Shown: positions 1,468-64,000, counted from the stretch's first letter. The stretch is 64,000 nucleotides of DNA from Candidatus Amesbacteria bacterium GW2011_GWC2_45_19 (GCA_001001555.1 LCKS01000001.1:82066-146065); one strand, 5' to 3'. A program made the numbers and translations. The notes: generated by a model from the sequence alone, not told the origin.

Positions 1468-1484
1468 GCTACAATTGTAGCATG
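1465..1484. promoter_or_regulatory. Perfect 20-bp palindrome CATGCTACAATTGTAGCATG whose arms contain both divergent start codons; symmetric TACAAT -10 boxes; candidate bidirectional leaderless promoter/operator
   Basis: Read directly: cat(1465-1467)=start of minus gene, ATG(1482-1484)=start of plus gene, TACAAT on both strands 6-7 nt from each start; only 14 nt intergenic. Confidence 0.5.
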
Positions 1485-41087: not shown

Positions 41088-41937
41088 ATAGTGAACTTTT
41101 AGGATAATTTTTTAACATCTGTTGAAACGAGATTTTGGATACTTTATTAGCAGTACTATCTATTTCATAAACTTTAAACTTATAAGCCTTAAGTAATTCC
41201 AAATAATCTCTACCCGAACTACCGCTTAGATATAATCCCCTCGGCCAAAATTCAGTTAGGATTTTCATTTTTTTGTTCTTTCTTAACACCTCTGACGCTC
41301 CTGTTAAAGCCTTTACCTCTGAGCCTTGAATATCCATCTTAATGACATTAATTCTTTTCTCTTTATTTTTGAAAAAAGTGTCCAATTTGATTGTTCTGAT
41401 AGAAGTAGATCGCCTATTACCTTCTGGATCATAAATGCGTTGGTCTCCAAAATTATCTTCATTACTTAAAAAAAGTTTACTCTTGCCATTTTTGTTCGAT
41501 ACAGCTTTATTTACCAACACTACATTTTTATATCCATTAACTTCCACATTTTTTTTAAGCAACTCAAAATTTTTGGGAAGTGGTTCAAATGCATATACCT
41601 TCCCTTTTGGTCCAACCCTTTTTGCTGCTATCAACGTGTAGTATCCAATATGGGCACCTATATCTATAACGATGTTTCCTGGTTTAATATTCTGTTCAAA
41701 CAGACTTGCCTCAAACTTCTCCCACTTTCCACTCAATATCAGTTCCAGCGAAATCACTCGGTCATCTTTGTCAATGTACATCCGATGGCCGCCAATAATC
41801 AATGATTCGGGTTTAAAAAAATTAACTACCGGCGAGACGACGGCTTTAGTATATGGATTTTCATAAATTTGGTGCACTACGGTCCACAAAACTCCTCTGC
41901 CAATATTTTTATATATTTTTCCAAACACAAGTATCAT
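41053..41937 (-). CDS. FkbM-family SAM-dependent methyltransferase
   Basis: VIDIGAHIGYYTLIAAKRVGPKGKVYAFEPLPKNFELLKKNVEVNGY...MDIQGSEVKAL. Confidence 0.6.
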   Translation of the reverse strand: MILVFGKIYKNIGRGVLWTVVHQIYENPYTKAVVSPVVNFFKPESLIIGGHRMYIDKDDRVISLELILSGKWEKFEASLFEQNIKPGNIVIDIGAHIGYYTLIAAKRVGPKGKVYAFEPLPKNFELLKKNVEVNGYKNVVLVNKAVSNKNGKSKLFLSNEDNFGDQRIYDPEGNRRSTSIRTIKLDTFFKNKEKRINVIKMDIQGSEVKALTGASEVLRKNKKMKILTEFWPRGLYLSGSSGRDYLELLKAYKFKVYEIDSTANKVSKISFQQMLKNYPKSSLFNANLLCVKSQ

Positions 41938-42969: not shown

Positions 42970-43790
42970 GTGAGTGGATTATAGTAGCCCGTTGCCGCCT
43001 TAATAGCCATTAGGAGAACGTCCAGCTTTTTTCTAAAGCCGACTATTTTGGTGGGAGTTTTACCCTGCGGAGGATAGCTGCGGATAACCGGGATTTCCAC
43101 ACTACGCAGTCCCAATCGGTTTGCGCGGGCGGTCACATAAAACAAAATCTCATAGCTATTAAAAACGCCCCGGAATAATTTCAAGTTTGGATCAAGAAGT
43201 AACTTCTTGCTGTAAGCCCGATGCCCATTACTTGTGTCTGTGTACCATTTGCTAGCGGCCAAGCTAAGCATTGGAGAGAATAAATATTTAATTGCCACCT
43301 CTCGTTCTAAAGGAGTATTTATTCCCCGGCCGCTCTTAATAAACCTGGATCCCTGGATATAGTCATATCCCATATCCAAATACTTCACAAAATTTGGAAT
43401 AGCTTTAGAATCATCCTTACCATTACCGTCAATGTGTAATACCCCTGCATAACCATTTTTAAGGGCAAAGGCATAAGCCATTCGATATTGAGCCCCCAAT
43501 CTCCCTGAACCAGTTTTTACGAGCAAGGTAGTCACTCCTTGATTTTTCAAAAATTTTGGGTCGGTGGAACCGTCCGTACTTCCTCCATCGGCAATAATAA
43601 TGTCCACTAGTTTCGAATACCTTTTTACTTTTTTCAACTGTTTCTTAAACTTGTCTCCCTCATTAATAACGGGAATAACCAAACAATATTTAGTCTTTCT
43701 TTTTTTAAATTCAAATTTTTCAAAATCCGGCACCTCCCAATCCTTTTTCATCACCCAATTATACAGTTGTATAATTGTCTTGTGGTACAA
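42966..43790 (-). CDS. GT2 polyprenyl-phosphate sugar synthase (DPM1-like); probable true start at 43751 (MKKDWEVP...)
   Basis: CLVIPVINEGDK...IIIADGGSTDGSTD...HIDGNGKDD. The ORF's first 13 codons overlap a palindromic promoter; a minus-strand TATAAT sits 7 nt upstream of the internal Met. Confidence 0.65.
   Translation of the reverse strand: MYHKTIIQLYNWVMKKDWEVPDFEKFEFKKRKTKYCLVIPVINEGDKFKKQLKKVKRYSKLVDIIIADGGSTDGSTDPKFLKNQGVTTLLVKTGSGRLGAQYRMAYAFALKNGYAGVLHIDGNGKDDSKAIPNFVKYLDMGYDYIQGSRFIKSGRGINTPLEREVAIKYLFSPMLSLAASKWYTDTSNGHRAYSKKLLLDPNLKLFRGVFNSYEILFYVTARANRLGLRSVEIPVIRSYPPQGKTPTKIVGFRKKLDVLLMAIKAATGYYNPLT
43756..43777. promoter_or_regulatory. Palindrome CAATTATACA-GT-TGTATAATTG with TATAAT on both strands; candidate bidirectional promoter
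   Basis: Read directly; minus-strand TATAAT is positioned for a leaderless start at 43751. Plus-strand TATAAT (43769-43774) is ~30 nt upstream of the GtrA ATG at 43806. Confidence 0.45.
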
Positions 43791-43805
43791 ACTTCTATAC
43801 AGCTC

Positions 43806-44189
43806 ATGCGGTTTGTGTTTGTAGGAGGACTGGCGGTGGGGGTTGATTTTATGGTTTATTTTGGGTTGTTATTTTTACTATCGGGTATTTCTACTCCTTT
43901 GGCTAAGGCTATATCTTACATCTGTGGGGCAACAGTTTCGTTTGTGGGCCACCGGTCTTTTGTATTTGCAGCCCACGATCGGCAGGCCAGACATCAAGTC
44001 CTGCCTTTTATTATTCTGTATGGAAGTTCTTTAATAGCCAACAATCTAATTAACCAAGTTATTTTAAATCTGACAGGGGTAAGAGTCCTGGCTTGGTTTA
44101 TAGCCATTTGCTCCTCAACTACCATAAACTATCTGGGGATGAAATTTGGAGTGTTTAGAGACGGATCTTTACACTTGCCAAAAATGTGA
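43806..44189 (+). CDS. GtrA-family small membrane protein
   Basis: MRFVFVGGLAVGVDFMVYFGLL..., 4 TM, 127 aa. Confidence 0.55.
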   Translation: MRFVFVGGLAVGVDFMVYFGLLFLLSGISTPLAKAISYICGATVSFVGHRSFVFAAHDRQARHQVLPFIILYGSSLIANNLINQVILNLTGVRVLAWFIAICSSTTINYLGMKFGVFRDGSLHLPKM

Positions 44190-44204: not shown

Positions 44205-45245
44205 ATGAAAGTATTAGTTACCGGGGGATGCGGATTTGCAGGCAGTCATGTTTGTGAATACTACAAAAAACAAGGCGCGAAGGTAGTAGCTTATGATAAT
44301 CTGACTAAATTTGAACTCCGCAGGACTGGTTATTCTACTGAAAAAGCCAGGTTTCATAACGTTGAGTTTCTAAAAAAACTAAAAGTAGAAATAGTCAGAG
44401 AGGACATTAGAGACAGACAAACATTGGAAAATTACGCCAAAAAAGCAGACTTTATAATTCACACTGCCGCCCAGCCAGCCATGACAATTTCCTGGGAAGA
44501 CCCAGAGTTGGACTTTACCACCAACGTGGTAGGAACATTTAATATCTTAGAAATTGCCCGTAAATATAAAATTCCGACTGTATCTTGCGCGACTATCCAC
44601 ATATATGGAAACAAAATTAATGACGAGGTCAAAGAAGGCAAGACTCGCTACATCAGGCGTCCGGCAGAAATAGATGAGAGTCATAGATTGGTCGAAGGCT
44701 TGTTGACACCATTGCATGCTTCCAAACATACCCTAGACCTTTATACTCAAACTTACATTGATACCTACAAACTTCCCTTGGCCTCTTTTAGGCTCACAGG
44801 ACTATATGGATCGCGTCAGTTTGGTGGAGAGGACCACGGTTGGGTAGCCAATTTCGCCATTCGTTCTGTTATGGATTACCCATTAACTATTTTTGGAACA
44901 GGTAAGCAAGTCCGCGATATCCTTCACATTTCCGATTTAGTCAGAGCATTTGACGCATTTTACAAAAAACAAAAAGCCGGTGTCTATAATATTGGCGGTG
45001 GAACTAAAACTATACTTTCATTGATAGAGTGCATACACTTGATAGAGAAAATATTGGGTAAAAAATCAGAGATTAGTTATCAACCCTCTCGAATGGGAGA
45101 CTTGGTCTATTTTGTCTGTGACATCACTAAGGCTAAGAAAAATTTAGGCTGGTCTGCCAAAGTTTCTCCGGAAAAGGGTGTTCGGGAGCTTGTTAATTGG
45201 GTCCAACAGAACAAAAATCTTTTCGAAATCAAAGATGCAAAATAA
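44205..45245 (+). CDS. NAD-dependent sugar-nucleotide epimerase/dehydratase (extended SDR; CDP-/UDP-sugar epimerase-like)
   Basis: MKVLVTGGCGFAGSH Rossmann; YxxxK region present (ASKHTLDLY). Confidence 0.7.
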   Translation: MKVLVTGGCGFAGSHVCEYYKKQGAKVVAYDNLTKFELRRTGYSTEKARFHNVEFLKKLKVEIVREDIRDRQTLENYAKKADFIIHTAAQPAMTISWEDPELDFTTNVVGTFNILEIARKYKIPTVSCATIHIYGNKINDEVKEGKTRYIRRPAEIDESHRLVEGLLTPLHASKHTLDLYTQTYIDTYKLPLASFRLTGLYGSRQFGGEDHGWVANFAIRSVMDYPLTIFGTGKQVRDILHISDLVRAFDAFYKKQKAGVYNIGGGTKTILSLIECIHLIEKILGKKSEISYQPSRMGDLVYFVCDITKAKKNLGWSAKVSPEKGVRELVNWVQQNKNLFEIKDAK

Positions 45246-46014
45246 GATAAGAATCGGTGTTATACCTGCCGCTGGTTCCGGAAAACGGTTGGGCTACCTT
45301 TCTTCACTCCTTCCCAAGACACTTTTTCCTCTTTATGACCGTCCAATAATTCACTATGTAGTTGATCAAATGCAAAGTATTGGTATAGAGGACATATATA
45401 TCATTGTCAATATTTACAAAGAAAAAATAATTGAGTATTTCAAATTTGTCCAAATGGATTTGCGGGCTAATATCTACTTCATTGAACAAAAAACCTTAAA
45501 CGGTAATGGTGAGGCAATTCTTTTAGCTGAGCAATACACCAAAAAGGAACCTTTCATGGTCATATATGGCGATGATTGTACAGTGTCTGAATCATTGGAC
45601 GGCATGATTCAAAATTTTTTAAAATCGACGGCAATTGTCATGGAAGGTGTAGTGAAAGAGGAAGACTTGGCAATTCTTAGACAAACTTGTTCGGTCAAGT
45701 TGGCAAAAAACGGCCGCATGATAGAGATTATCGAAAAGCCTGAAAACCCGCCGCACATGTTCCGTGGTTGCGGGGTATATTTATTCCGCCCGGAAGTATT
45801 TAGTCATATTCGAAACACGCCAATACACCCAATCCGTCAAGAACGGGAAATCACATACACCATTGATCGATTGGCAAAACTTGGTAAAGCCTACGGACAC
45901 TTAATTAATGGCAGTAATGTAAATATTAATGATTATGATGAATTAATTAAAGCTAGCCAGATGTTAAAAGACCACAAAAAGGCGTCTAAAAAATTGGTTG
46001 AGGTTTTGTTTTAA
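45235..46014 (+). CDS. Sugar-1-phosphate nucleotidyltransferase
   Basis: IRIGVIPAAGSGKRLG...LPKTLFPLYDRPIIHY G-x-G-x-R-L signature. Confidence 0.65.
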   Translation: MQNKIRIGVIPAAGSGKRLGYLSSLLPKTLFPLYDRPIIHYVVDQMQSIGIEDIYIIVNIYKEKIIEYFKFVQMDLRANIYFIEQKTLNGNGEAILLAEQYTKKEPFMVIYGDDCTVSESLDGMIQNFLKSTAIVMEGVVKEEDLAILRQTCSVKLAKNGRMIEIIEKPENPPHMFRGCGVYLFRPEVFSHIRNTPIHPIRQEREITYTIDRLAKLGKAYGHLINGSNVNINDYDELIKASQMLKDHKKASKKLVEVLF

Positions 46015-47029: not shown

Positions 47030-48436
47030 CTAATTTGATTGGTATTTCTTGTTTATTGCTAAGTATACGTATTGATAGGCAAAATGCTGGGTAAGTAGTC
47101 TAGCCAGTACTATGCCGATACTCGTAAAAAACGGAGCGGGGGTAACTTGTTTAGAAATAATAGAATACTTTGATCTATTGATTAACTCTTGGGAAGATTT
47201 ATCTGTAAAAAAATGTAAATGGGTGGAATCAAAAGGACCGCGGGTGAACTTATGTCTTGGAAAAAGAAAACGCAGTATTCGAGCAGGTAAATAATTAGAA
47301 TTAGGTAAGGAAACTATTAAGTATTTAGAGTTAATTTGATTTATTACTGTCTCCGGCTTGTTTAAATGTTCAAGAACATCTGCGGCCACAGTGACTTCTG
47401 AAGATGTCTTTGGAAGAGGTTTATTTAAGCTTCGCCAATAGACAGTCGAATAACGGTTAATGGCTGCAAATCTTTTCCAACTATGGCTTTTTTCTATACC
47501 GATGAGATCTCCTTGCCAAGTCGGACCTAGTGCAGAAGCTAAGAATCCTCCAGCACAGCCTAAATCAAGAACTGTACGAAAGTTGCATTTTTTAATTAGA
47601 GAAGCAATAAGCATATGACTGGAGTTAGAGTGATGCTTAAAGCTGTAAGGGGAGACAGAATAAATTGAATCTTTAATGAGTCCTAACTGAGATAATTGAT
47701 ATTTAAGTACTGCATTGAGACAGCTTAAACCGTAGGAGAACACCTTGACTCCGCTTTTGCTGCCTGGTCCGTAATAAGTGGGAATGGGCACTTCAATTAT
47801 TCGATATCCCAGATGATTGAGAAATATTATCATTTCTGTGTCAAAGTGGTATGAATTTGACAGTTTAGACAGGGGAATTGCTTTAAAGACGTTAGTATTA
47901 TATGCACGATATCCCGAGTGGAATTCGGAAAAATTTGTACCTAGAATTATGTTTTCCAAATGAGTTAGTATTTTGTTACCAATAAATTTGTAATAAGGCA
48001 TACCACCTTCCAAGGGCCTGCCTAGCATTCTGGAACCCATTACTACACCTATTTGCCTCCAATCCTGTTCTTCGAAGGGTTTTAAAAGCAATGGCATTTT
48101 TTCAGGTGAGTATTGGACATCGCCATGCAGCATAACTACAACGTCGAGTTTTTGGGTTATGGCATAGCGGTATCCACGTTTTTGATTTCCACCGTAGCCT
48201 AAATTTCGGGGATTTCTAAATACTCGAAACTTTTCAATTCTTCGAAGTAACTTGTAACCCATGGCTGCAAAATAAGTATTGTCCCCGGAGTGATCATCAA
48301 GACAGTAAATGGTGGAAGCACCCCTTTTAATTTTTACCGGAATGCGTTCGTATGCCGCAATAAGGGTAGACGCAACATTGTAGGCAAGAATGAAAATTCC
48401 GTAGCGTAACTTGTTCTTCATATTTGTTCTAAGCAT
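47030..48436 (-). CDS. Bifunctional GT2 (DPM1-like) glycosyltransferase fused to C-terminal class I SAM-dependent methyltransferase
   Basis: N-term FILAYN...CLDDHSGDNT...LHGDVQY; C-term VLDLGCAGGFLASAL...ADVLEHLNKPE methyltransferase motifs I and post-I. Confidence 0.6.
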   Translation of the reverse strand: MLRTNMKNKLRYGIFILAYNVASTLIAAYERIPVKIKRGASTIYCLDDHSGDNTYFAAMGYKLLRRIEKFRVFRNPRNLGYGGNQKRGYRYAITQKLDVVVMLHGDVQYSPEKMPLLLKPFEEQDWRQIGVVMGSRMLGRPLEGGMPYYKFIGNKILTHLENIILGTNFSEFHSGYRAYNTNVFKAIPLSKLSNSYHFDTEMIIFLNHLGYRIIEVPIPTYYGPGSKSGVKVFSYGLSCLNAVLKYQLSQLGLIKDSIYSVSPYSFKHHSNSSHMLIASLIKKCNFRTVLDLGCAGGFLASALGPTWQGDLIGIEKSHSWKRFAAINRYSTVYWRSLNKPLPKTSSEVTVAADVLEHLNKPETVINQINSKYLIVSLPNSNYLPARILRFLFPRHKFTRGPFDSTHLHFFTDKSSQELINRSKYSIISKQVTPAPFFTSIGIVLARLLTQHFAYQYVYLAINKKYQSN

Positions 48437-53720: not shown

Positions 53721-54704
53721 ATGGCCACAAATAAAAAAATCAGGGTGACAGTAACAGGCGCCGGTGGATTCATAGGACACCACCTCGTAAAATTTCTAAA
53801 GAAAAAGGATTATTGGGTGAGAGGGGTTGATATTAAAAACCCAGAATTTGAAAAAACGGTTGCCGATGAATTTTTGTTATTAGATCTTCGTATTAAAAGA
53901 AACGCCTTAAAAGCTACTAAAAACGTTAACCAAGTATACAATCTGGCCTCCAATATGGGTGGAATCGGTTTTATAAGCAGCGTAAAAGCTCGGCTTATGA
54001 ATGACAATATTTTGATTGATACTAGCATGATTGAGGCGTCTCGACAAAATAATGTTAGCAGATTTTTTTATCCTTCATCGGCTCTGGTTTATCCGAATTT
54101 TAAAGAACCTAAAAAAAATTTAGGACTAAAAGAAAGTTATGCTTACCCTGCACTTCCTGATAGCGAGTATGGCTGGGAAAAACTATTCGCTGAAAGGCTT
54201 TGTGCTAATTATTACGAAGATTATGGATTAGAAACTCGGGTAGCCAGATTTCATAATATTTATGGTCCATTAGGAGTATACGAAGGCGGACGGGAAAAGT
54301 CGCCCGCCGCAATTTGTAGAAAAATTGCTTTAGCTAGAAACGGGGATGAAATTGAAGTTTGGGGCGATGGTAAACAAATGCGATCATATTGTTATATAGA
54401 CGACTGTATTCAAGGAATTTACAGACTTACTCTTTCTGAAATACATCAGCCTGTAAATATCGGCACTGACGATGCAGTCTCGATAAACGAATTTATTGAT
54501 ATGACTTCGGAAATTGCGGGAAAAAGAATAAAAAAACGATACGATTTGTCGAAACCGCAAGGCGTGAGATGTAGAAATTCCGACAACACACTGGTTAGAA
54601 AATTTCTCGGATGGGAGCCCAAGATTCCGCTAAAAGTCGGTATTAGGAAAAACTATGACTGGATAAAAAACGAATTAGACAAAAAAGGGATGAAAAAAAA
54701 TTAA
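53721..54704 (+). CDS. GDP-mannose 3,5-epimerase-like NAD-dependent epimerase (GME family)
   Basis: Motifs shared with GME: ITGAGGFIG, FxxxDLR, NLAxxMGGxGFI, RFFYxSSAxxYP, GWEKL, RFHNIYGP, GGREKxPAAxCRK, VRxRNSDNTL, LGWxP. Confidence 0.6.
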   Translation: MATNKKIRVTVTGAGGFIGHHLVKFLKKKDYWVRGVDIKNPEFEKTVADEFLLLDLRIKRNALKATKNVNQVYNLASNMGGIGFISSVKARLMNDNILIDTSMIEASRQNNVSRFFYPSSALVYPNFKEPKKNLGLKESYAYPALPDSEYGWEKLFAERLCANYYEDYGLETRVARFHNIYGPLGVYEGGREKSPAAICRKIALARNGDEIEVWGDGKQMRSYCYIDDCIQGIYRLTLSEIHQPVNIGTDDAVSINEFIDMTSEIAGKRIKKRYDLSKPQGVRCRNSDNTLVRKFLGWEPKIPLKVGIRKNYDWIKNELDKKGMKKN

Positions 54705-55669
54705 TGAAGTATCTAAATTATTTCAAAGGAAGGAGAGTCGTTATAACTGGTGGGAACGGTTTTTTTGGAACTCACATTATTAATCACTTACGACAAATAA
54801 AGTGCGAAATTCTTGTTCCCAGAACAAAAGAAGGAATTGATTTCAGAAAACGTGAGGATTGTTTTTCCTATCTAAACATAGCTAAACCTGATTTAGTAAT
54901 CAACTGCGCAGCCAACCAAGGTGGAATAGGTTATCACGAGGGGAAACAAGCGGATTTACTTATGGATAATCTTCTAATGGGGATATATTTGATGAATGCC
55001 TCTCAACAAACGGGTGTCAAAAAATTCATCAACATTGTTGCGGGATGCTCTTATCCTGGATATGTCGAGAGTAGTGAAATGAATGAGGAAGATTATTGGA
55101 ATGGTTGGGTTCATGACAGTATATTTAGCTATGGATTTGCTAGAAAAGCCTCCACGGTGTATGGACTTGCTCTTAAAAGGCAGCATAATTTCAACTCTAT
55201 TCACCTTGTTATGGCTAATATGTATGGCCCGGGAGAACATTTTAATCCCGAGCAGAGCAAGGCTCTAGCTGGTCTTATCAGAAAAATTTACGAGGCTAAG
55301 AAAAAAAAGCTACATTTTGTCAAAGTTTGGGGGACAGGAAAACCCATTAGAGATTGGCTATATGTAAAGGACGGAGCAGAGGCTATTTTAAGAGCAGCTT
55401 CGACATATAACAACGTAGATCCATTAAACATTGCCACTGGGGTCGGCATCTCAGTTTCCGAACTTGCCGAAACGATCAAGGAAGTACTAGGTTACGAAGG
55501 CAAGCTGGTATACGACACTAGTAAGCCAGACGGAGCACTCCATAAACTGTTTGGAATTAAAAAAATGAAAAAAATTCTCAATTGGATACCTCCAACCTCG
55601 TTGAGAAAAGGGATTAAAGAAACAGTTCAATGGTTTGATAAAAATTATCAACGAGCAATTTCATATTAA
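54704..55669 (+). CDS. GDP-L-fucose synthase-like (Fcl/GMER family) NAD(P)-dependent epimerase/reductase
   Basis: Collinear with E. coli Fcl: INCAAxxGGI, SSCxYP, ANxYGPxxxFxPxxSxxxxxLIRK, VWGTGxPxRxxLxVxD, SKPDG. Confidence 0.55.
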   Translation: MKYLNYFKGRRVVITGGNGFFGTHIINHLRQIKCEILVPRTKEGIDFRKREDCFSYLNIAKPDLVINCAANQGGIGYHEGKQADLLMDNLLMGIYLMNASQQTGVKKFINIVAGCSYPGYVESSEMNEEDYWNGWVHDSIFSYGFARKASTVYGLALKRQHNFNSIHLVMANMYGPGEHFNPEQSKALAGLIRKIYEAKKKKLHFVKVWGTGKPIRDWLYVKDGAEAILRAASTYNNVDPLNIATGVGISVSELAETIKEVLGYEGKLVYDTSKPDGALHKLFGIKKMKKILNWIPPTSLRKGIKETVQWFDKNYQRAISY

Positions 55670-55672
55670 GCC

Positions 55673-56437
55673 ATGAAAACATTAGCAGTTATTGGCGGCA
55701 GTGGAACGTTGGGGTCTGATTTGGTTCAATATTTTTCAACTAAATTTGTTGTTATATCAATAAACAGAGGTAATTATCGGGATCAAATAGGAAAACTTTT
55801 TGATGTTGTGATAAACGCAAATGGGAATAGTAAGCGTTTTTGGGCAAACCAAAATCCCGTAGAAGATTTTTTCGCTTCTTCTGCTTCTGTAATCAAAAGT
55901 ATTTTCGATTTTCCTTGCGACGTTTATATTTATATTTCCTCTCCAGATATATACGAGAACCACAGTGAACCTAAGTACACTAAGGAAAACGTGCAAATTA
56001 ACCCAAAAAGACTAGAACCGTATGGACTTCATAAGTATTTAGCAGAGCTCATTGTAAAGAAATATAAAGAAAAATTTCTTATCTTAAGACTTTCGATGTT
56101 TCTTGGGAAAAAATTAAAAAAGGGACCAATTCACGATGTCATCAAGGATAACCCGATTTACGTTACTCTTAACTCAAAACTCCAACTTATAAGCACTTTT
56201 GCAGTCGCCGAAGTGATCGAAGTCCTCCTGAATAAATCTATCAGAAATGAAGTCTTTAATGTCGGTGGAGTTGGAACTTTCTCCTTTTTGGATGCAAAAA
56301 AACTTTTAAAAAAGAATATCCAGGTCAGACCAGACGCAAAGAAGCAGTTATACGAAATGGATACCAATAAACTAAAACGTTTATATCCAGCTTTAAAAAC
56401 CTCCGAGGAATACTTGCGACAGTTTCTATTAGTGTAG
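55673..56437 (+). CDS. Short SDR-family NAD(P)-dependent sugar-nucleotide reductase (RmlD-like)
   Basis: MKTLAVIGGSGTLGSDL Rossmann; YGLHKYLAE (YxxxK). Confidence 0.5.
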   Translation: MKTLAVIGGSGTLGSDLVQYFSTKFVVISINRGNYRDQIGKLFDVVINANGNSKRFWANQNPVEDFFASSASVIKSIFDFPCDVYIYISSPDIYENHSEPKYTKENVQINPKRLEPYGLHKYLAELIVKKYKEKFLILRLSMFLGKKLKKGPIHDVIKDNPIYVTLNSKLQLISTFAVAEVIEVLLNKSIRNEVFNVGGVGTFSFLDAKKLLKKNIQVRPDAKKQLYEMDTNKLKRLYPALKTSEEYLRQFLLV

Positions 56438-56465
56438 AGTTTCGTGTTACAATTTATCTGTTTTC

Positions 56466-57614
56466 ATGAGCGTTAAAAAGAAAAATTACACATTAAGCGA
56501 AGATCTGATTCGGCCATGGTCGACATTTGTTCCCAAGCAAGCAGCGATTGAAGTGTCCAAAACTTTGAAATCAAAATGGATTAATACGGGAGTCAAAGAA
56601 AAAGAGTTAAGAGAAAAAGCTTGTAAAAAATGGAGCTTTCGCTACTGTGTTGCTGTCTCCAATGGGACTGCCGCGCTAAGGTCCAGCCTTGCGATGCTGG
56701 GAGTTGGTTCTGGTGATGAAGTGATTTCTACTCCTTTCACTTTTATTGCTACAAATACAGCAATTTTAGAACAGAGAGCAGTACCTGTTTTTGCTGACAT
56801 CAAATACGATGATCTTAATATAGATCCCAAAAGCATTGAGAAAAGAATCACTTCAAAAACAAAAGCAATCATGGTGGTTCATTACGGCGGAAACCCCGTT
56901 GATTTAGATGAAATACGAAAGATAGGGACAAAATACAAGCTTCCTTTAATTGAAGACGCAGCTCACGCCTTAGGGAGTAAGTACAAGAATGATTACATTG
57001 GTTTAAAAGGAGAACTTGTGTGTTTTTCTCTGCAAGTTGTAAAAATCATCACCTCGGGAGATGGCGGTTTAATCGCAACTTCTAACCAAGATTATTATCA
57101 AAAACTCAAAAAAATCATTTGGTACGGCATTGATAGAGAGGAAAAAAAAACAAATCTTATAGATCCCTTGCCCAATAACTTTAAAGGTGACGTGCTCGGC
57201 TTTAAATATAATATGAACGACATAACAGCTACTTTAGGGATAGTTGGAATTGATCACTTCAATGAGGCGGCCAAAAAAAGAAAAGTCATAGGCGAGCGCT
57301 ATAGAAATGAGCTCTCAGGGCTACCAAAAATAAAGCTCATGAAGTACCATGCTGACCGAAGCCCCAATTATCAGATATTTCCAGTTCATGTTGAAAACCG
57401 TCTGCGCTTTGCAACATACTTAAGGGACCAAAATATCATGGTAAACATCAATAATCGCAGAAATGATATATATCCAATATTTGGCGGCCTTAGGAAAGAT
57501 CTTACATCAACCGCGCGAGCTGATCAGGACGTTATCCTCCTCCCAATACATGCTGACCTTACCCAACGGCAAGTGGACCATATTATTAAACATGTTAAAG
57601 AAGCCGTTAGATAA
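56466..57614 (+). CDS. DegT/DnrJ/EryC1/StrS-family PLP-dependent sugar aminotransferase
   Basis: AVSNGTAALRSSL...DEVISTPFTFIATN...IEDAAHALGS...SLQVVKIITSGDGG (Schiff-base Lys present). Confidence 0.7.
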   Translation: MSVKKKNYTLSEDLIRPWSTFVPKQAAIEVSKTLKSKWINTGVKEKELREKACKKWSFRYCVAVSNGTAALRSSLAMLGVGSGDEVISTPFTFIATNTAILEQRAVPVFADIKYDDLNIDPKSIEKRITSKTKAIMVVHYGGNPVDLDEIRKIGTKYKLPLIEDAAHALGSKYKNDYIGLKGELVCFSLQVVKIITSGDGGLIATSNQDYYQKLKKIIWYGIDREEKKTNLIDPLPNNFKGDVLGFKYNMNDITATLGIVGIDHFNEAAKKRKVIGERYRNELSGLPKIKLMKYHADRSPNYQIFPVHVENRLRFATYLRDQNIMVNINNRRNDIYPIFGGLRKDLTSTARADQDVILLPIHADLTQRQVDHIIKHVKEAVR

Positions 57615-57619
57615 ATTAG

Positions 57620-58777
57620 TTGAGGATGAATAAGTCAATTGTCTATATCAACTACTCACCCTACGAAAATTCAGGAAAAATACTAGACTACCTGCTTGAT
57701 AATTTTGTTAACGTATTTCATTTTTCTATAGGGTTTCATAATTTAAAAAATAAAAAAAATTACAACAGACTAATAATTTTCAAAAACGGAAAATTAGAAA
57801 AAGAATTCGTCCTCTTTCAACTACCCATACCCTCATCACTTGTGTTTATATTGCTACCAATTAGGTCACTAATCAATTTTCTTCAGATTATTAGATATAC
57901 GGTTTGGCTCAAATACAAATATAAGACAATCAACATCTATTTCACAGTCAATGCGTTCATTGCCTGGATCGGAAATCTCCTTAGAGGTTTTGGGGTTGTA
58001 GAAAAAACCGTCTTTTGGGTTTGGGATTATTACCCGCCTATTCATGAAAATAAAATCATCATGCTTATGAGGTATGTTTATTGGCAATTTGACAAGATTA
58101 GTTCCTACTCGGATAAGGTAGCTTTTGTTAACCACAGATTACTTAATTTACGTAAAGACATGGGGATTTATGAAAGAAATGCCAAACATCCAATTATCCC
58201 AATCGGAACCGATAAATTTGCATACACCAAAAGGAAAAATGCCAAGAAAGTAATATTTGGGTTCATAGGTGTGCTTAAAAAGAGCCAAGGACCCGGAATC
58301 ATTTTTGATCACTCTCACGCATTGTTCAAAAAATTTAAAACCTTTCAGTACGAAGTTGTCGGGTCAGGTCCGGATGAGGAATATTTAAAACACAGAGCGT
58401 ATGAAACAGAAGTCCAAACTAAGTTTTATGGCTATCTTGAAGGCGAATCGTTTAATCAGGTTTTGAACAGATGCACTATTGGTATAGCCACTTATATTCC
58501 TGATCCGAGTAATGTTTCCTATTATGGGGACCCCGGAAAAATTAAAAGATACATTAGTCTAGGGTTACCTGTTATATGTACTGATGTCTTGGAGTTTTCA
58601 AGAGAAATAGAGAGATCAGAATCAGGAATAATCGTTAATTACGATGATTCCAAAGCGTTTGTAGCCGCCGTTGGAAAAATTATGTCAAAATACCCTTTTT
58701 ACAGCAAGAACGCGTACAAATTGAGTCAAAAATATTACTACAAAAAAATTTATCCTGAGATGTTTGACCTTAACTAG
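57620..58777 (+). CDS. GT-B-fold glycosyltransferase (GT4-like), AT-rich
   Basis: 385 aa; C-terminal half with Rossmann-like pattern (VIFGFIGVL...EVVGSGPDEEYL...IGIATY); weak similarity only. Confidence 0.4.
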   Translation: MRMNKSIVYINYSPYENSGKILDYLLDNFVNVFHFSIGFHNLKNKKNYNRLIIFKNGKLEKEFVLFQLPIPSSLVFILLPIRSLINFLQIIRYTVWLKYKYKTINIYFTVNAFIAWIGNLLRGFGVVEKTVFWVWDYYPPIHENKIIMLMRYVYWQFDKISSYSDKVAFVNHRLLNLRKDMGIYERNAKHPIIPIGTDKFAYTKRKNAKKVIFGFIGVLKKSQGPGIIFDHSHALFKKFKTFQYEVVGSGPDEEYLKHRAYETEVQTKFYGYLEGESFNQVLNRCTIGIATYIPDPSNVSYYGDPGKIKRYISLGLPVICTDVLEFSREIERSESGIIVNYDDSKAFVAAVGKIMSKYPFYSKNAYKLSQKYYYKKIYPEMFDLN

Positions 58778-58810
58778 TAAAATTCTAACCATTTTGTATA
58801 ATCTGGTTAA

Positions 58811-59719
58811 ATGGCCGCTAAATCAGAAAGACGAATTTTAATTACGGGAACAAGTGGATTTATCGGATCAACGTGCATTCATACATTAGCTGGTAGAAAA
58901 GATTACTCACTAGTTTGTCCTTCATCGGCGCAGATGGACATAACTAACAAGCATGCAGTAGAAGACGCAGTAAAACAATATCGACCGGATACTATTCTAA
59001 ATTTTGCAGCCCACCGAAACGCTAACACAGCAGAAATCCAGAGAGGCGACGAAGAAGGCAGTGCCTGGATGATAAATGTTGTAGGAGCCAAAAATCTTGC
59101 CGAAGTCTGCAATATATACAGAATATATTTGCTTCACGTTTCTACAGATATGGTTTTTAGTGGAAAAGAAACGCGGAAGGGACCATACTCCGAAAGTGAT
59201 ACACCCGAAAATGATCCCAACAATCTATCCTGGTATGGTTGGACTAAAAGACTGGCAGAACAAGCCGTCATTTCAAATGAGAACGCTTGTGTTGTGAGGA
59301 TAGGCAATGTGACTAAACCCATCTATGATCCTAGTTTAGATTATATTGGAAAAATTCAGTGGCTCTACGATACAGGTAATTCATACCCGCTTTTTCATGA
59401 TCAAAATATAACTTTGACATACATACCTGAACTTGTAGATTCAATGATACAACTAATTGATGCCAGAATGAGTGGTGTATATCATGTAGCAAGCGACAAC
59501 GTTACTACTCCGGTGGAGCTGGCTAAGTATTTGATGTCTAATGTGCGCCCAGATAGAAATAAAATCAAAGAAGTCCGTATCGACGAATATCTTAGTGCGC
59601 ATCCAAACAGATATCCCAAAGATGGTGGATTGAAAAGTCAAAATACTCAAAAAAAACTAGGAAAAAAGTTTAGATCATGGCAAATGATAGTAGACTGTTT
59701 TATTAAATACGCCACATGA
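58811..59719 (+). CDS. RmlD-like NAD(P)-dependent 4-keto sugar-nucleotide reductase
   Basis: ILITGTSGFIGS...RPDTILNFAA...LLHVSTDMVFSG...PYSESD...YGWTKRLAE matches dTDP-4-dehydrorhamnose reductase family. Confidence 0.6.
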   Translation: MAAKSERRILITGTSGFIGSTCIHTLAGRKDYSLVCPSSAQMDITNKHAVEDAVKQYRPDTILNFAAHRNANTAEIQRGDEEGSAWMINVVGAKNLAEVCNIYRIYLLHVSTDMVFSGKETRKGPYSESDTPENDPNNLSWYGWTKRLAEQAVISNENACVVRIGNVTKPIYDPSLDYIGKIQWLYDTGNSYPLFHDQNITLTYIPELVDSMIQLIDARMSGVYHVASDNVTTPVELAKYLMSNVRPDRNKIKEVRIDEYLSAHPNRYPKDGGLKSQNTQKKLGKKFRSWQMIVDCFIKYAT

Positions 59720-60744
59720 CAAGAATGATTAAATGGCCAAAGGTATCATTCATTTTGCTCACATTAAATGGTGGAGACGGCATTCGTAAATGCCTAGAAT
59801 CACTTAAAAAACAATCATACCCTGCTGATCTGATTGATGTCGTAGTCATCGATAACGGATCAAAAGACAACAGTGTTGAAATAGCTAAAAGCCTTGGAGG
59901 AAGAGTATTCATCCACCCTGAAGGAAATTTATATTCCAACTGGGTAAGAGGGCTTCATAAAATTAGAGGGGACTTCGTTTTTTATTTAGAACAAGATATC
60001 GTTCTAAGGGGGAGAGATTTTATCAAAAACATGATCAAACCCCTTCTTGACGACAACCGGCTGGTTGCAACGTTCACTAAGGAATATCCGCATAAAAACA
60101 TGCACTGGGTTCCCAGGTTTCTTTCTTATCACTATTGTCAGTGCGATCCGCTTTTAGAATTTCTTTTTTTGCCTGTGGAAAAATCTTTTATCGAAAAAAA
60201 GAACGGCTATATTGTATGTAAATACCAAGACAAAAAAATCCCACCGGCCGCTCGTATGTTTTATAGAATCAAGTATTTAAAAAAGACACCTAACTGGACC
60301 ACAAAAAATTATTTTGATCATGATTTTATTATTAATTGCGTGCGGTCAGGTTATCCTTATTTTGCCTATGTTCCCGAACCGGGTTATTACCATTACCATG
60401 CTAGGAACTTACAGCATTTAATGCAAAAGAGAGTCCGTAACATGGGTATGCATTTCTTTCCTGAATATGGAAAATATCATTACACCATCTTGAATACGAA
60501 GAATAAACATGAAGTCCTGTGGTTAATTTTGTTCGTCATTTACGCCAATCTCTTTTTTCCTGCCGCAATAAGAGGGTTTATTCGCTTTCTGAAACATAAG
60601 GATTGGGCGCTCTTGATGGAACCTGTCATTACATTAGCGATAACAGACTCGCTTTTACTCGCTTTTCTAAAAGACAAGAGTGGTAGGAAGTTTATAACCG
60701 ATTCCATAAATTCATTTATTAAGGTTCAGCCTGTCGCATCATAA
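59716..60744 (+). CDS. GT2 glycosyltransferase
   Basis: VSFILLTLNGGDGI...VVVIDNGSKDNS...EQDIVL. Confidence 0.6.
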   Translation: MTRMIKWPKVSFILLTLNGGDGIRKCLESLKKQSYPADLIDVVVIDNGSKDNSVEIAKSLGGRVFIHPEGNLYSNWVRGLHKIRGDFVFYLEQDIVLRGRDFIKNMIKPLLDDNRLVATFTKEYPHKNMHWVPRFLSYHYCQCDPLLEFLFLPVEKSFIEKKNGYIVCKYQDKKIPPAARMFYRIKYLKKTPNWTTKNYFDHDFIINCVRSGYPYFAYVPEPGYYHYHARNLQHLMQKRVRNMGMHFFPEYGKYHYTILNTKNKHEVLWLILFVIYANLFFPAAIRGFIRFLKHKDWALLMEPVITLAITDSLLLAFLKDKSGRKFITDSINSFIKVQPVAS

Positions 60745-60749
60745 TTTCT

Positions 60750-62750
60750 ATGCTTAGGAAATTAATACTGTTTATATTGATCCCGTTTCTTTTGACGTCA
60801 ATTTGGTTTGGACCAAGAAAAATTATTGCCCATGCCGAAGAGGGTTTACTCTTTTTTAATCCAATTAGGACGTATCTAATTTCATCGCATCTCTGGCAGG
60901 ATACAGGATTGGGATTTGTTAATCTGTTCTCAACACCACGAATAACGTTGTATATATTCTCTGCTGGACTAAGCAGCTTAAAAATTTCCAATTTTGTTGT
61001 TCAACAATTGATTTTCTTTTTGTTAATTTTAGTACCGCTAGTATCAATACCCCCCCTGACTAAACTATTGTTACCTGACTCGAAAAGCAACGTTGGTACC
61101 TACGCTGCACTATTTTATGTATTTAACTTATTTTTTGTTTCCCAGGTTCTGCAGCGATTTATTATAGAGTTATTTTTTTTGTGGTCATACCTTCCACTAT
61201 TTATCTACCTTTGGGTTAGATGGTTAGAGTCGAGTAAGCTAAAGTATCTTATATTATTAATCCTTTCGTCCGTCATTTATTCTACATCCTTCGCAATTAT
61301 TGCTTCTGTTTTCGCACTTTGGATACCAGCCGGGGTTTTATGGTTAAAGTATCGAAGATTTCCACCCTTGATAGTTGGGGCCGTAATTTGGTTTCTGGCA
61401 GCAATTTGGTGGTGGTATCCATTAGTTGTCATAAAAGATAATCCTTATAATCAATTTTTAAACTCAGCTCAAAACCTAATCTCACTTGTAGATGTCAGTA
61501 AATACTATTCTAATTCCGACATTTTATTATTAAAGCAAAAATACTATTTTTCTCCCCAAACTATCTGGTTCAACTTTTTTTCCCGCCCACCCATAAATTA
61601 TCTTAGCTGGGTTTTTCCCATCTTACTCGCTGTGGGTTCAATTTGGGCTATCAGATCTAGATCAAGCAGGCTTTTAATTATCTGGCTTATAGTGGGTTGG
61701 TTTTTTGTCAAAGGAGCCAATCCTCCCTGGGGTACCCAATTTTACGAATGGTTGTTTGAAACCCTTCCGTTCACCATGGTCGTACGCAATCCATACGAAA
61801 AACTTGGAGTAATTTTTCTCCTTCCTTATTGTTTGCTCATGGCACTGGGATTGTCCAGGATACCAATTCGTTTTGTTCGAGTAGTCATTGTCTTTGCTGT
61901 GTGCTTCTTCTTGTTAAGGCCAATGTGGAACGGCCAGGTTTTTACGGGATATCAGGTTAAAGTTCCTCTGTCTTACGAGCTAGCAGACCACTATCTCAAC
62001 TCTCAGAGTAATCTTCGCCTCCTTCACTTGCCTTTTGTTCATGGATCTGGGGTAGGATATAACTGGGGGTATTTGGGAGACGAACCTTCAGAATTTACGT
62101 TCGATCGGCCTTCTTTGTCCAAAACATACAATTTCTCAGGCGATCCTTATATGCTAATTTATCAATACTTACGCTCACCAAACGTTTATCGGATTCTTCA
62201 GCAATTTGCCATAGACACCGCGGTTTTACATAAAGACATTTTGCCAGGAGTGACTTTACAAGAAAATTATGCAGGTGCCAAAGCAATGATCGGACTGATG
62301 GAAAAGGTTAAACTTACAAAATCATTTGATGATCTGGATATATACCAACTTGAAGACGCGCCTGTAGACTGGGGCTACTTAAGCAACAACATTACAGAAG
62401 TAAAATCATTAAAAGAGGGCTTAGATATGGTTTTAAACAATGAGAGGTTTATTCCTCTTTACTCAGCTTTTACCTTGCGAACAGACATTCCGAATATAAA
62501 ACAATCAATTCTTCCACAATATCAAATTAATAAGATTTCGCAAGTTCACTATCAATTTCAAATCTACAATGCCGCCTCACCCTATTTTCTTATCCTTTCT
62601 AATAGTTTTAATCCCCTTTGGATTGCTAGGATCAATGGATTAATCGTCACAGACCATTTTCAAATAAATGGTTACGCTAATGGATGGCTTATCAATAAAA
62701 CTGGGAATTACACAGTTGATATTACATTCAAAGTCTGGCCATGGGATTAA
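60750..62750 (+). CDS. Large polytopic membrane protein (666 aa) with C-terminal soluble domain; putative GT-C-type transferase/polymerase
   Basis: >12 TM in first ~420 aa then hydrophilic C-terminal ~240 aa; no recognised motif. Confidence 0.4.
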   Translation: MLRKLILFILIPFLLTSIWFGPRKIIAHAEEGLLFFNPIRTYLISSHLWQDTGLGFVNLFSTPRITLYIFSAGLSSLKISNFVVQQLIFFLLILVPLVSIPPLTKLLLPDSKSNVGTYAALFYVFNLFFVSQVLQRFIIELFFLWSYLPLFIYLWVRWLESSKLKYLILLILSSVIYSTSFAIIASVFALWIPAGVLWLKYRRFPPLIVGAVIWFLAAIWWWYPLVVIKDNPYNQFLNSAQNLISLVDVSKYYSNSDILLLKQKYYFSPQTIWFNFFSRPPINYLSWVFPILLAVGSIWAIRSRSSRLLIIWLIVGWFFVKGANPPWGTQFYEWLFETLPFTMVVRNPYEKLGVIFLLPYCLLMALGLSRIPIRFVRVVIVFAVCFFLLRPMWNGQVFTGYQVKVPLSYELADHYLNSQSNLRLLHLPFVHGSGVGYNWGYLGDEPSEFTFDRPSLSKTYNFSGDPYMLIYQYLRSPNVYRILQQFAIDTAVLHKDILPGVTLQENYAGAKAMIGLMEKVKLTKSFDDLDIYQLEDAPVDWGYLSNNITEVKSLKEGLDMVLNNERFIPLYSAFTLRTDIPNIKQSILPQYQINKISQVHYQFQIYNAASPYFLILSNSFNPLWIARINGLIVTDHFQINGYANGWLINKTGNYTVDITFKVWPWD

Positions 62751-63487
62751 AATCAAAAAAATTTAAAGACTGGACTATTTCATATTTTAATGAAGTCGAG
62801 TTAAATGAAATGTTAAAAGAACTATACGAGAAAAAATATTATCAGTTTGATACCTCAAAACCAGACCCGGTTATATTTGACGTTGGAGCCCTGATTGGTG
62901 AAACAGTTTTATATTTTAAAGAGCGATTTCCGCGAGCGAAAATCACGGCTTTCGAACCCAGTCCACGCAGTTTCTCTCTGCTCAAAAAAAATATCAGCAG
63001 AAACCGCGTTACCGGCGTCCGGTTACTTAACTTGGCAGTAGGCAAAGTTGCTGGCAAAATGGATTTCTACATAGACAAAAATGAAAACGTACCCTGGGGT
63101 AGGGGAGACTCCCTGAAAAATACAAAATTCACCAATCCGTCAATCTCAAAAACGGTTAAAGTTCAAGTAGTTCGACTTTCCAAATATATCAACGCTAATG
63201 TCGACTTGCTAAAATTGGACGTGGAGGGAGCGGAAACGGAGATCGTCTGCGAAATTGAAAAAAAACTCAAATTTGTTAAAAACATTATTCTCGAATTCCA
63301 TGAGAGCGTCTACAACCCCGAAAACAAGTTCTCGATCGTAATTGGCGTTCTTAAAAAAAATGGATTTAGAATAAGCATTTATCTTGGTAAATGGCCGTTG
63401 CCGGAGATCGCGGTAATTTTGGCCAGAGTCGTGCTAAAATTAGTGAGTATCGACGAATATTGGCTGCGCATTTATGCAAAACATTAA
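62741..63487 (+). CDS. FkbM-family SAM-dependent methyltransferase
   Basis: VIFDVGALIGETVLYFKERFPRAKITAFEPSPRSFSLLKKNI...KLDVEGAETEIV. Confidence 0.6.
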   Translation: MGLKSKKFKDWTISYFNEVELNEMLKELYEKKYYQFDTSKPDPVIFDVGALIGETVLYFKERFPRAKITAFEPSPRSFSLLKKNISRNRVTGVRLLNLAVGKVAGKMDFYIDKNENVPWGRGDSLKNTKFTNPSISKTVKVQVVRLSKYINANVDLLKLDVEGAETEIVCEIEKKLKFVKNIILEFHESVYNPENKFSIVIGVLKKNGFRISIYLGKWPLPEIAVILARVVLKLVSIDEYWLRIYAKH

Positions 63488-63508: not shown

Positions 63509-64000
63509 TATGAAAGTTATAATCCTGTGCGAAGGTTTTGGTACTAGATTGTCGTCAATTATTTCCGATAGACCCAAACCTTTAGCCCCGATTGCGGGAA
63601 AACCTTTTATAGAGCACATCATAAAGTGGCTTTGTAAATACGGCTACAGAGACATAATTTTCTGCGTTAGTTATAAAGCTGAACAAATTGTAAAATTTAT
63701 AGGAGATGGTAAGAAATTCGGCATCAAGGCAACATATTCCCAAAGGGCCCAACCTTCAGGGACAGGCGGAGCTATCAAGTTTGCCGGTCGATTGTTGCAA
63801 GATAAAAATGAAAGTGTATTAGTACTTAATGGAGACACTTTATTTGACATTAACTTGAATAAATTTGTAGAATTTCACGATAAAAACAAATCGTTTGCAA
63901 CTATCGCCCTTAGTCACGTTTTGGATGTGCATCAATATGGAGAAGTCAGTATCGATTCCGGATATCAACTAATCAAATTCAGCGAAAAAAATCCAGAAAG
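63509..64000 (+). CDS. Sugar-1-phosphate nucleotidyltransferase (mannose-1-P guanylyltransferase-like), 3'-truncated by window edge
   Basis: MKVIILCEGFGTRLSSIISDRPKPLAPIAGKPFIEHII...GTGGAIKFA; not in ORF track because no stop codon before the window end. Confidence 0.6.

Follow-up and report, generated by a model that had tools for sequence, protein, structure and literature searches.

How might a bacterium assemble an L-configured or amino GDP-sugar from homologs of GDP-mannose 3,5-epimerase (GME) and GDP-L-fucose synthase (Fcl, or GMER) when no 4,6-dehydratase stands beside them? This question is raised by a 64,000-nucleotide stretch of the genome of Candidatus Amesbacteria bacterium GW2011_GWC2_45_19 (GCA_001001555.1 LCKS01000001.1:82066-146065), referred to here as the window. 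An earlier examination of the sequence alone (the sequence-only reading) had described, at positions 53721-59719, a GDP-hexose branch with GME-like and Fcl-like genes, a DegT aminotransferase and two RmlD-like reductases. Our analysis centers on the first four of these genes, E1 to E4 (Table 1); other genes of the window are named by their start positions. E1 is a GME-family protein without the catalytic cysteine, E2 an Fcl-derived protein with a decayed redox triad, E3 a short protein of short-chain dehydrogenase/reductase (SDR) type, and E4 an aminotransferase. It is well established for GME and GMER that one SDR active site performs several reactions. We propose that, in this cassette, the chemistry of that single active site may have been divided among specialized paralogs, an explanation built on sequence, synteny and analogy that we regard as an even call.

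Complementary active-site residues in E1 and E2

The motifs that had first suggested a GME-like protein are all present in E1 (RFHNIYGP, GGREKSPAAICRK and VRCRNSDNTL), and the family relationship that they imply was borne out. E1 matches the plant GME structures 8sg0 and 2c59 at E values of 6e-100 to 2e-99, with the next family, Fcl, at 3e-29; it is 48% identical to Arabidopsis thaliana GME (AtGME) and scores 126.4 bits against the GDP-L-fucose synthase equivalog NF047922, for which the cut-off is 500. An AlphaFold model of E1 has GMEs as its 14 best fold matches (TM 0.88), roughly ten orders of magnitude ahead of the rest; confidence in the model is low at its substrate loops (residues 80-87, 123-147 and 188-191). 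In a neighbor-joining tree, the check that the sequence-only reading had called for, all 100 of 100 bootstraps set the GME-like sequences, E1 included, apart from Fcl, and no grouping with GalE, the UDP-glucose 4-epimerase, was seen. By sequence and predicted fold, E1 is a true member of the GME family and not a GalE.

According to a review of GM35E enzymes and a paper in the Journal of Biological Chemistry (JBC), the hallmarks of this family are a Ser-Tyr-Lys triad responsible for redox chemistry at C4, a Cys145/Lys217 dyad responsible for both epimerizations, and Arg306. Mapped onto AtGME, the E1 residues Ser120, Tyr150 and Lys154 preserve the triad (Ser143, Tyr174 and Lys178), Lys193 and Arg285 preserve Lys217 and Arg306, and Leu122 replaces the catalytic Cys145. 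Among the best 120 homologs of E1, the nearest 49 all have Leu, Val or Ile in the Cys145 column and the other 71 all have Cys. Lys217 is invariant in the Cys group and is Lys in 37 and Arg in 12 of the Cys-less sequences, and Gln152, also invariant in the Cys group, is lost from the Cys-less group together with an alteration of its loop. The redox triad is invariant across all 120 homologs, as are Asn203, Arg243 and Arg306 in both groups. Tyr187 and His242 are specific to the E1 subclade, whose alignment also has an invariant Asp at the end of beta-2 (Asp37 in E1), an NAD-type signature. Judged by these residues, E1 is not a canonical GME: the epimerization dyad is lost and the redox triad is kept. 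The GDP-L-galactose or GDP-L-gulose chemistry that had been entertained for this locus is, on account of the missing cysteine, not supported, and we propose by analogy that E1 is an NAD+-dependent C4-dehydrogenase of a GDP-sugar.

E2, as had been noted before, aligns collinearly with GDP-L-fucose synthases, with E values of 3e-53 for 7ll6 and 1e-42 for E. coli Fcl, and scores 222.1 bits against NF047922, likewise under the cut-off of 500. On E. coli Fcl numbering, Ser107 is replaced by Ala113, Lys140 by Arg147 and His179 by Lys186, Tyr136 is retained as Tyr143, and Cys109 is kept as Cys115. The same pattern was found in all six cassettes first compared. Among the best 120 homologs of E2, the Ser107 column is Ala in 118, the Cys109, Lys140 and His179 columns are Cys, Arg and Lys, respectively, in all 120, and the Tyr136 column is divided between Tyr (74) and Phe (46). 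Canonical Fcl chemistry is not supported for E2 because its redox triad and His179 are missing. From its residue pattern, E2 carries a GME-type Cys/Lys dyad on an Fcl scaffold with a decayed redox triad and is thus the mirror image of E1, and we propose that it functions as an epimerase only. The Fcl-like proteins DdahC and MlghC of Campylobacter jejuni are the reverse of E2, having lost the dyad and kept the triad, and are pure reductases (JBC paper).

Graded variants of E2 were also encountered. An 'ACYKH' form keeps both Lys140 and His179, a 'PCYKK' form keeps Lys140, and some loci have a second, upstream copy of E2 with Leu at the Tyr136 position (graded-variant loci L158, L159 and L163; L133, L147 and L149; L107-L110). 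Taken together, these variants may record stages in an evolution from Fcl toward the form without the triad.

The most conventional explanation of the pair is that E1 is an ordinary GME producing GDP-L-galactose or GDP-L-gulose and E2 an ordinary GDP-L-fucose synthase. It draws on the closeness of E1 to the plant enzymes, on the presence of the triad, Lys217 and Arg306, and on the names 'GDP-D-mannose 3,5-epimerase' and 'GDP-L-fucose synthase' that the Joint Genome Institute has given to some relatives. We consider it very unlikely, given the exchange of Cys for Leu in E1 and for Leu, Val or Ile across the subclade, the change of Lys217 to Arg in a quarter of that subclade, and the loss from E2 of Ser107, Lys140, His179 and often Tyr136, together with its low equivalog score. 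An ordinary Fcl would, moreover, have to be fed by a 4,6-dehydratase, and none was found in the window, as the sequence-only reading had stated: among its six extended SDRs, which include 44205 and 46044 outside the cassette, there is no canonical 4,6-dehydratase and none has the dehydratase acid/base motif (T-[DS]-E), E1 having S-A-L at that position.

Conservation of the cassette and exchange of its first gene

All nine loci with a Cys-less E1 that were traced on contigs have E2 and E3 adjoining, E4 wherever the contig reaches, and usually a GT1-type glycosyltransferase (GT1) next; the flanks of the nine cassettes are otherwise unrelated. A scan of genome contigs with the Cys-less alignment returned, among the matches listed, only canonical-Cys GMEs, with at most 64% identity. 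These 78 loci are a negative control and not a sample of the Cys-less subclade. None of the 78, which include Acidobacteriota, Planctomycetia and Methylacidiphilum, carries the cassette, a further argument against an ordinary GME and Fcl.

A scan of metagenomes led by E2, in which neighboring genes were clustered, contributed 79 additional loci, for 85 E2 loci overall. E3 lies directly downstream of E2 in 67 loci. E4 orthologs were present in 33 and E1 in 11, the RmlD-like gene of the 58811 type (cluster 9) occurs in 13 of the 85, and GT1 (cluster 19) occupies position +3 in seven. E2-E3 is thus the universal core and E1-E2-E3-E4, with GT1, the conserved unit of E1-type loci, whereas the 58811 gene is an occasional accessory outside the conserved core.

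In 23 E2-E3 loci there is a 317-amino-acid SDR that matches PDB entries 6VO6 and 6VO8 (E = 5.8e-89), which we take to be Cj1427. Cj1427 is the GDP-heptose C4-dehydrogenase of C. jejuni; it releases a 4-keto sugar, it binds NADH tightly and has it recycled by alpha-ketoglutarate, and it is followed in its pathway by the cupin epimerase Cj1430 and then the reductase Cj1428. E1 and the Cj1427-like gene never occur together in one locus. Of 31 well-flanked E2 loci (at least 4 kb upstream and at least 5 kb downstream of E2), seven contain E1, another 12 the Cj1427-like gene and the remaining 12 neither of the two; no locus contains both. The gene set of the window, with the dehydrogenase swapped, is found in L097 (Cj1427-like gene ahead of E2-E3-E4-GT1) and in L121, and the order E2-E3-E4-Cj1427-like is found in L128, L134, L135 and L150. 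This mutual exclusivity, together with the swapped gene sets, provides the strongest argument that E1 may serve as the C4-dehydrogenase of the cassette.

Of the two genes that had been described as RmlD-like reductases, 58811 deserves the name by its Pfam match (Table 1), with a TIGR01214 score under the cut-off of 224 bits and no RmlC-type cupin found in the window. E3 is weakly RmlD-like at best, with 24.5 bits against Pfam RmlD_sub_bind (cut-off 27) and 25 bits against TIGR01214. Its family is small (322 matches, mostly unnamed or with generic annotation). The Ser90/Tyr117/Lys121 triad is invariant in the E3 alignment, and the Arg/Lys after beta-2 is of the NADP type. The E3 model (pLDDT 93.9) has RmlD and archaeal GalE-like proteins as its best folds, and the fold search gave no sharper function. 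We propose that E3 acts as an NADPH-dependent ketoreductase in constant partnership with E2, perhaps completing the work of E2 as RmlD follows RmlC.

The DegT assignment of E4 is secure, its PF01041 score lying well above the cut-off of 19.8 bits (Table 1). Its nearest solved relative is ArnB (8sng, E = 5e-54), with whose Schiff-base lysine Lys193 of E4 aligns, and this pyridoxal phosphate (PLP) lysine is kept in 21 of 21 E4 orthologs of at least 60% identity. E4 was also considered as a ColD-like 3-dehydratase, a role rejected for this cassette because of the conserved PLP lysine.

Distant DegT proteins in which His replaces the PLP lysine ('SF[FY]GSHIIT') occur in other E2-E3 loci (L092/L093, L108, L110, L114, L130 and L139), which are arranged as glycosyltransferase-E2-E3-methyltransferase and are without E4. 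A His at this site is the mark of 3-dehydratases (the ColD/E1 type) and suggests that some versions of the pathway lead to 3-deoxy sugars. As E2-E3 stands beside these proteins too, the pair looks like a reusable finishing module.

A proposed pathway divided among paralogs

By analogy with the C. jejuni enzymes, we infer the following roles and order of steps. E1 would oxidize C4 of GDP-heptose or GDP-mannose and release the 4-keto product, as a functional analog of Cj1427. E2 would epimerize C3 and/or C5 of this free 4-keto sugar. The resulting 4-keto-L-sugar would be reduced by E3 or, alternatively, transaminated at C4 by E4, and the adjacent GT1 is the probable user of the product. It is tempting to take the proposal one step further and to envisage, in bacteria of the candidate phyla radiation (CPR) and others, a route in which a Cys-less GME, as a C4-dehydrogenase that sets its product free, and an Fcl without the triad, as a stand-alone SDR-fold C3/C5-epimerase, generate a GDP-4-keto-L-heptose or -hexose, which an ArnB-like enzyme converts into a GDP-4-amino-4-deoxy-L-sugar for envelope glycans. 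We offer this specific route tentatively, as one possibility. In such a route, alpha-ketoglutarate from the transaminase may re-oxidize the NADH of the dehydrogenase.

Several points weigh against a division of labor of this kind. E3 and E4 would compete for one 4-keto intermediate, so that a single linear four-enzyme pathway is left unexplained; the simplest reading is a branch, to an L-sugar and to a 4-amino-4-deoxy sugar. The model of divided chemistry also leaves the re-oxidation of the NADH of E1 unexplained. The Cys-less GME clade is monophyletic with moderate support only (65 of 100 neighbor-joining bootstraps), and the association of E4 with a dehydrogenase candidate is borderline (15/20 versus 4/11; Fisher p = 0.056). 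The identity of 6VO6 and 6VO8 with Cj1427 could not be confirmed; the depositor name, 'putative sugar-nucleotide epimerase/dehydratase', fits. Two further points, concerning the cofactor site of E2 and the loci that lack a dehydrogenase candidate, bear directly on alternative explanations.

The GGxGFxG motif and the PRTK NADP-type signature of E2 are invariant among its relatives, so dinucleotide binding has probably been retained and E2 could act as a reductase of a non-canonical kind. E2 might then be a working epimerase/reductase with another proton donor and E3 might have a different job, for example in heptose C6 chemistry or on another sugar. Such an arrangement would accord with the invariance of His137, Ser139 and Ser142 near the Tyr/Phe site and would remove the competition between E3 and E4. 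Nevertheless, we find it unlikely, as the exchanges of Ser for Ala and Lys for Arg and the frequent exchange of Tyr for Phe all strike the triad, and as E3, RmlD-like and with a full triad, is tied to E2 in so many loci. The K140R and Y136E variants of GMER are reportedly inactive. That S107A, Y136E and K140R point mutants of GMER have been made and crystallized is recorded in structure entry titles.

The 12 of 31 well-flanked loci without E1 or a Cj1427-like gene within about 9 kb indicate that the keto sugar can come from elsewhere. A canonical GDP-mannose or GDP-heptose 4,6-dehydratase encoded elsewhere in the genome might supply it; E1, as a C4-reductase or a 4-epimerase, would then determine the final stereochemistry, and the cassette would yield 6-deoxy, perosamine-like or colitose-like sugars. 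The E2-E3 pairs beside His-type DegT proteins in L092, L108, L110, L130 and L139 agree with this idea, as does the finding that dyad-less Fcl-like proteins of C. jejuni are pure reductases. E1, however, has the NAD-type Asp37 of an oxidizing GME and no NADP signature, and it is swapped for the homolog of a dehydrogenase rather than of a reductase. The cassette, moreover, already has a reductase in E3 (here accompanied by 58811), and no 4,6-dehydratase was found within 64 kb. This reading as a whole is, in our estimation, improbable.

A split 4,6-dehydratase would place all four enzymes in one redox-balanced line and would explain the absent dehydratase. E1 would oxidize C4, the Cys/Lys pair of E2 would eliminate water across C5-C6, E3 would reduce the ene, and E4 would aminate C4 to give a GDP-4-amino-4,6-dideoxy sugar. 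Yet this scheme is without precedent, the enzyme that replaces E1 (Cj1427) yields a 6-hydroxy 4-keto product, and the E2 residues match an epimerization dyad and not the Asp/Glu pair of a dehydratase. We therefore think it highly improbable.

A GDP-linked substrate is likely, because E1 keeps the GME residues reported to contact the diphosphate and the sugar. The 63510 gene at the end of the window has HddC as its best NCBIfam match (135.7 bits from its 163 amino acids only; NF049965 cut-off 300), followed by mannose-1-phosphate guanylyltransferase. L002 has an HddC-HddA fusion in the corresponding place, and the HddC part of this fusion shares 65% identity with the 63510 product. L001, with an E1 of 90% identity, has in this place a GmhA that passes the NCBIfam equivalog cut-off and then a gene of the GT9 heptosyltransferase family. 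Eight further loci, across cassette types, carry GmhA-, HddA- or HddC-like genes at most 8 kb from E2. The 63510 product is a probable supplier of GDP-heptose or GDP-mannose. Where the sequence-only reading had a GDP-hexose branch, these heptose genes and the Cj1427-like replacement indicate GDP-heptose as much as GDP-hexose; on balance, we lean slightly toward GDP-heptose over GDP-mannose. As had been predicted, an L-configured and/or amino GDP-sugar remains the likely product class from sequence; it would probably be destined for the cell surface.

Further modification of the product may occur at some loci. L166 (9227-13138) has a hexapeptide acetyltransferase gene between E3 and E4, followed by sulfatase-family and PAPS-reductase-family genes. 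An acetyltransferase beside an aminotransferase is typical of amino-sugar pathways, and the L166 product may be N-acetylated and possibly sulfated. A TylC3-like sugar C-methyltransferase (Methyltransf_13/14) follows the cassette in L121, L145 and L150 and is found nearby in L003 and L005, a recurrence that may indicate that the 4-keto intermediate also gives rise to branched-chain sugars.

Gene neighborhood, significance and known systems

From 51736 to the end of the window, all genes are on the plus strand and are separated by gaps of at most 46 bases or by short overlaps; the ATG of E2 shares one base with the TAA stop of E1. A promoter and terminator scan returned background (43 sites versus 39 expected). 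Candidatus Amesbacteria bacterium GW2011_GWB1_47_26 (CPR, Microgenomates) has proteins 100% identical to E2 and E3, and the order of the GT2, membrane protein and FkbM genes (59716-63487) is the same in L001 and L002.

Table 1. Genes of the cassette and its downstream flank, with positions in the 64,000-nucleotide window
Feature	Position	Strand	Length or support
E1: GME-family SDR, Leu122 at the AtGME Cys145 position	53721-54704	+	327 aa
E2: Fcl/GMER-derived SDR, degenerate redox triad	54704-55669	+	321 aa
E3: short RmlD/GalE-fold SDR	55673-56437	+	254 aa
E4: DegT-family PLP aminotransferase, ArnB-like	56466-57614	+	382 aa; PF01041 291 bits
GT1-type glycosyltransferase, 3' of E4	57620-58777	+	PF13692/PF00534
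RmlD-like reductase, accessory	58811-59719	+	PF04321 159 bits; TIGR01214 143 bits (<224 cut-off)
GT2	59716-60744	+	Pfam
Polytopic membrane protein	60750-62750	+	666 aa
FkbM methyltransferase	62741-63487	+	Pfam
HddC-like sugar-1-phosphate guanylyltransferase, 5' part	63510-64000	+	163 codons; ends at window edge

The two extended SDRs outside the cassette had been listed as further epimerases, a description with which their best matches agree. Considered as a hidden 4,6-dehydratase, 44205 was rejected, its closest relative being a CDP-tyvelose 2-epimerase (9rl0, E = 1.6e-54), and 46044, whose best matches are GalE-like proteins, was rejected likewise. A Cj1427-like gene was not found in the window. 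Two nucleotidyltransferases, at 45178-46014 and from 63510 to the window end, were found where three had been counted. The 44205 gene overlaps the first of these, the pair is kept in L001 and L002, and a GtrA-like gene (43767-44189) lies upstream; 44205-46014 may be a separate module for nucleoside diphosphate-sugar 2-epimerization.

More broadly, G+C content is about 0.44-0.50 over the first 32 kb of the window and drops to 0.36-0.41 from about 36 kb on, and the low-G+C part is an island of sugar-modification and glycosyltransferase genes. Between 21374 and 30675 are tandem polytopic membrane paralogs of about 500-537 amino acids (21374, 22989, 26044, 27539 and 29098), five in all, with 30-39% identity over more than 400 amino acids and weak matches to PMT_2 (GT-C); 3578 and 7303 encode further PMT_2 proteins, and 1482-3638 encodes a fusion of GT2 and PMT_2. 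A GT2-methyltransferase fusion is encoded at 47030-48436 on the minus strand, and a second FkbM-family methyltransferase at 41053-41937, also on the minus strand, in addition to that of Table 1. The glycan of this region is probably methylated.

The GM35E literature raises the possibility that 3,5-epimerization is split over several bacterial enzymes, and the existence of stand-alone nucleoside diphosphate-sugar 3- or 5-epimerases with an SDR fold has been posed as a question there (GM35E review). The redox-only residues of E1 and the dyad-only residues of E2 suggest adjacent, reciprocal 'half-enzymes' that bear on both questions and belong to a set of at least 85 loci. An earlier description of such a cassette, or of the E1 and E2 subclades, was not found in the literature, of which coverage was incomplete. 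What is new here is the enzymes, namely a Cys-less GME paralog and a triad-less Fcl paralog, the latter a proposed SDR-fold epimerase, in constant association with an RmlD-like SDR; the logic of oxidizing C4, epimerizing, and then reducing or transaminating is already known and is not a new principle. The findings are relevant to nucleotide-sugar enzymology and to the annotation of CPR genomes, in which the automatic naming, by some sources, of the E1 and E2 subclades as GDP-mannose 3,5-epimerase and GDP-L-fucose synthase is probably wrong. The cassette is also a possible source of biocatalysts for free GDP-4-keto sugars and for rare L- or amino-sugars, and it may be a sign of unusual CPR envelopes that contain heptoses or amino-sugars.

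Compared with the GMEs of A. thaliana (2C59), M. dubia (8SG0) and Methylacidiphilum (MfGM35E), E1 is alike in family, fold, NAD-type Rossmann motif, triad, Asn203, Arg243 and Arg306, and differs by the Leu at Cys145, the relaxed Lys217 in its clade, the altered Gln152 loop and the constant linkage to E2-E3-E4. E2 resembles the GDP-L-fucose synthase of E. coli (1E6U) in full-length collinearity, Cys109, NADP-type motifs and the GDP-pocket Trp; it differs by Ser107Ala, Lys140Arg and His179Lys, by Tyr136Phe in 38% of its relatives, and in having no GMD partner.

As a pathway, the cassette as proposed would share with the capsular heptose pathway of C. jejuni (Cj1427/Cj1430/Cj1428) the logic of oxidation, epimerization and reduction on a free GDP-4-keto-heptose. 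The C. jejuni epimerase is a cupin, whereas that of the cassette would be an Fcl-derived SDR fold; the C. jejuni reductase is Fcl-like, whereas the cassette would combine an RmlD-like reductase with a GME-derived dehydrogenase and add a lysine-type aminotransferase. The L-heptosamine of septacidin (SepI, SepJ, SepA and SepG) is likewise made by 4-oxidation, 5-/3-epimerization and 4-transamination with O6 kept, as we propose here, but by unrelated families (GMC oxidase, TIM barrel and VOC), on a nucleoside-linked heptose and in actinomycete secondary metabolism. Finally, in the ArnA/ArnB route to UDP-4-amino-4-deoxy-L-arabinose, a 4-keto sugar formed by NAD-dependent oxidation is aminated without a 4,6-dehydratase, much as would be expected of E4, and GT2 and GT-C (PMT_2) genes comparable to ArnC and ArnT lie near the cassette. 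The Arn route, in contrast, operates in a UDP context with a decarboxylation and a formyltransferase, neither of which is found in the GDP context of the cassette.

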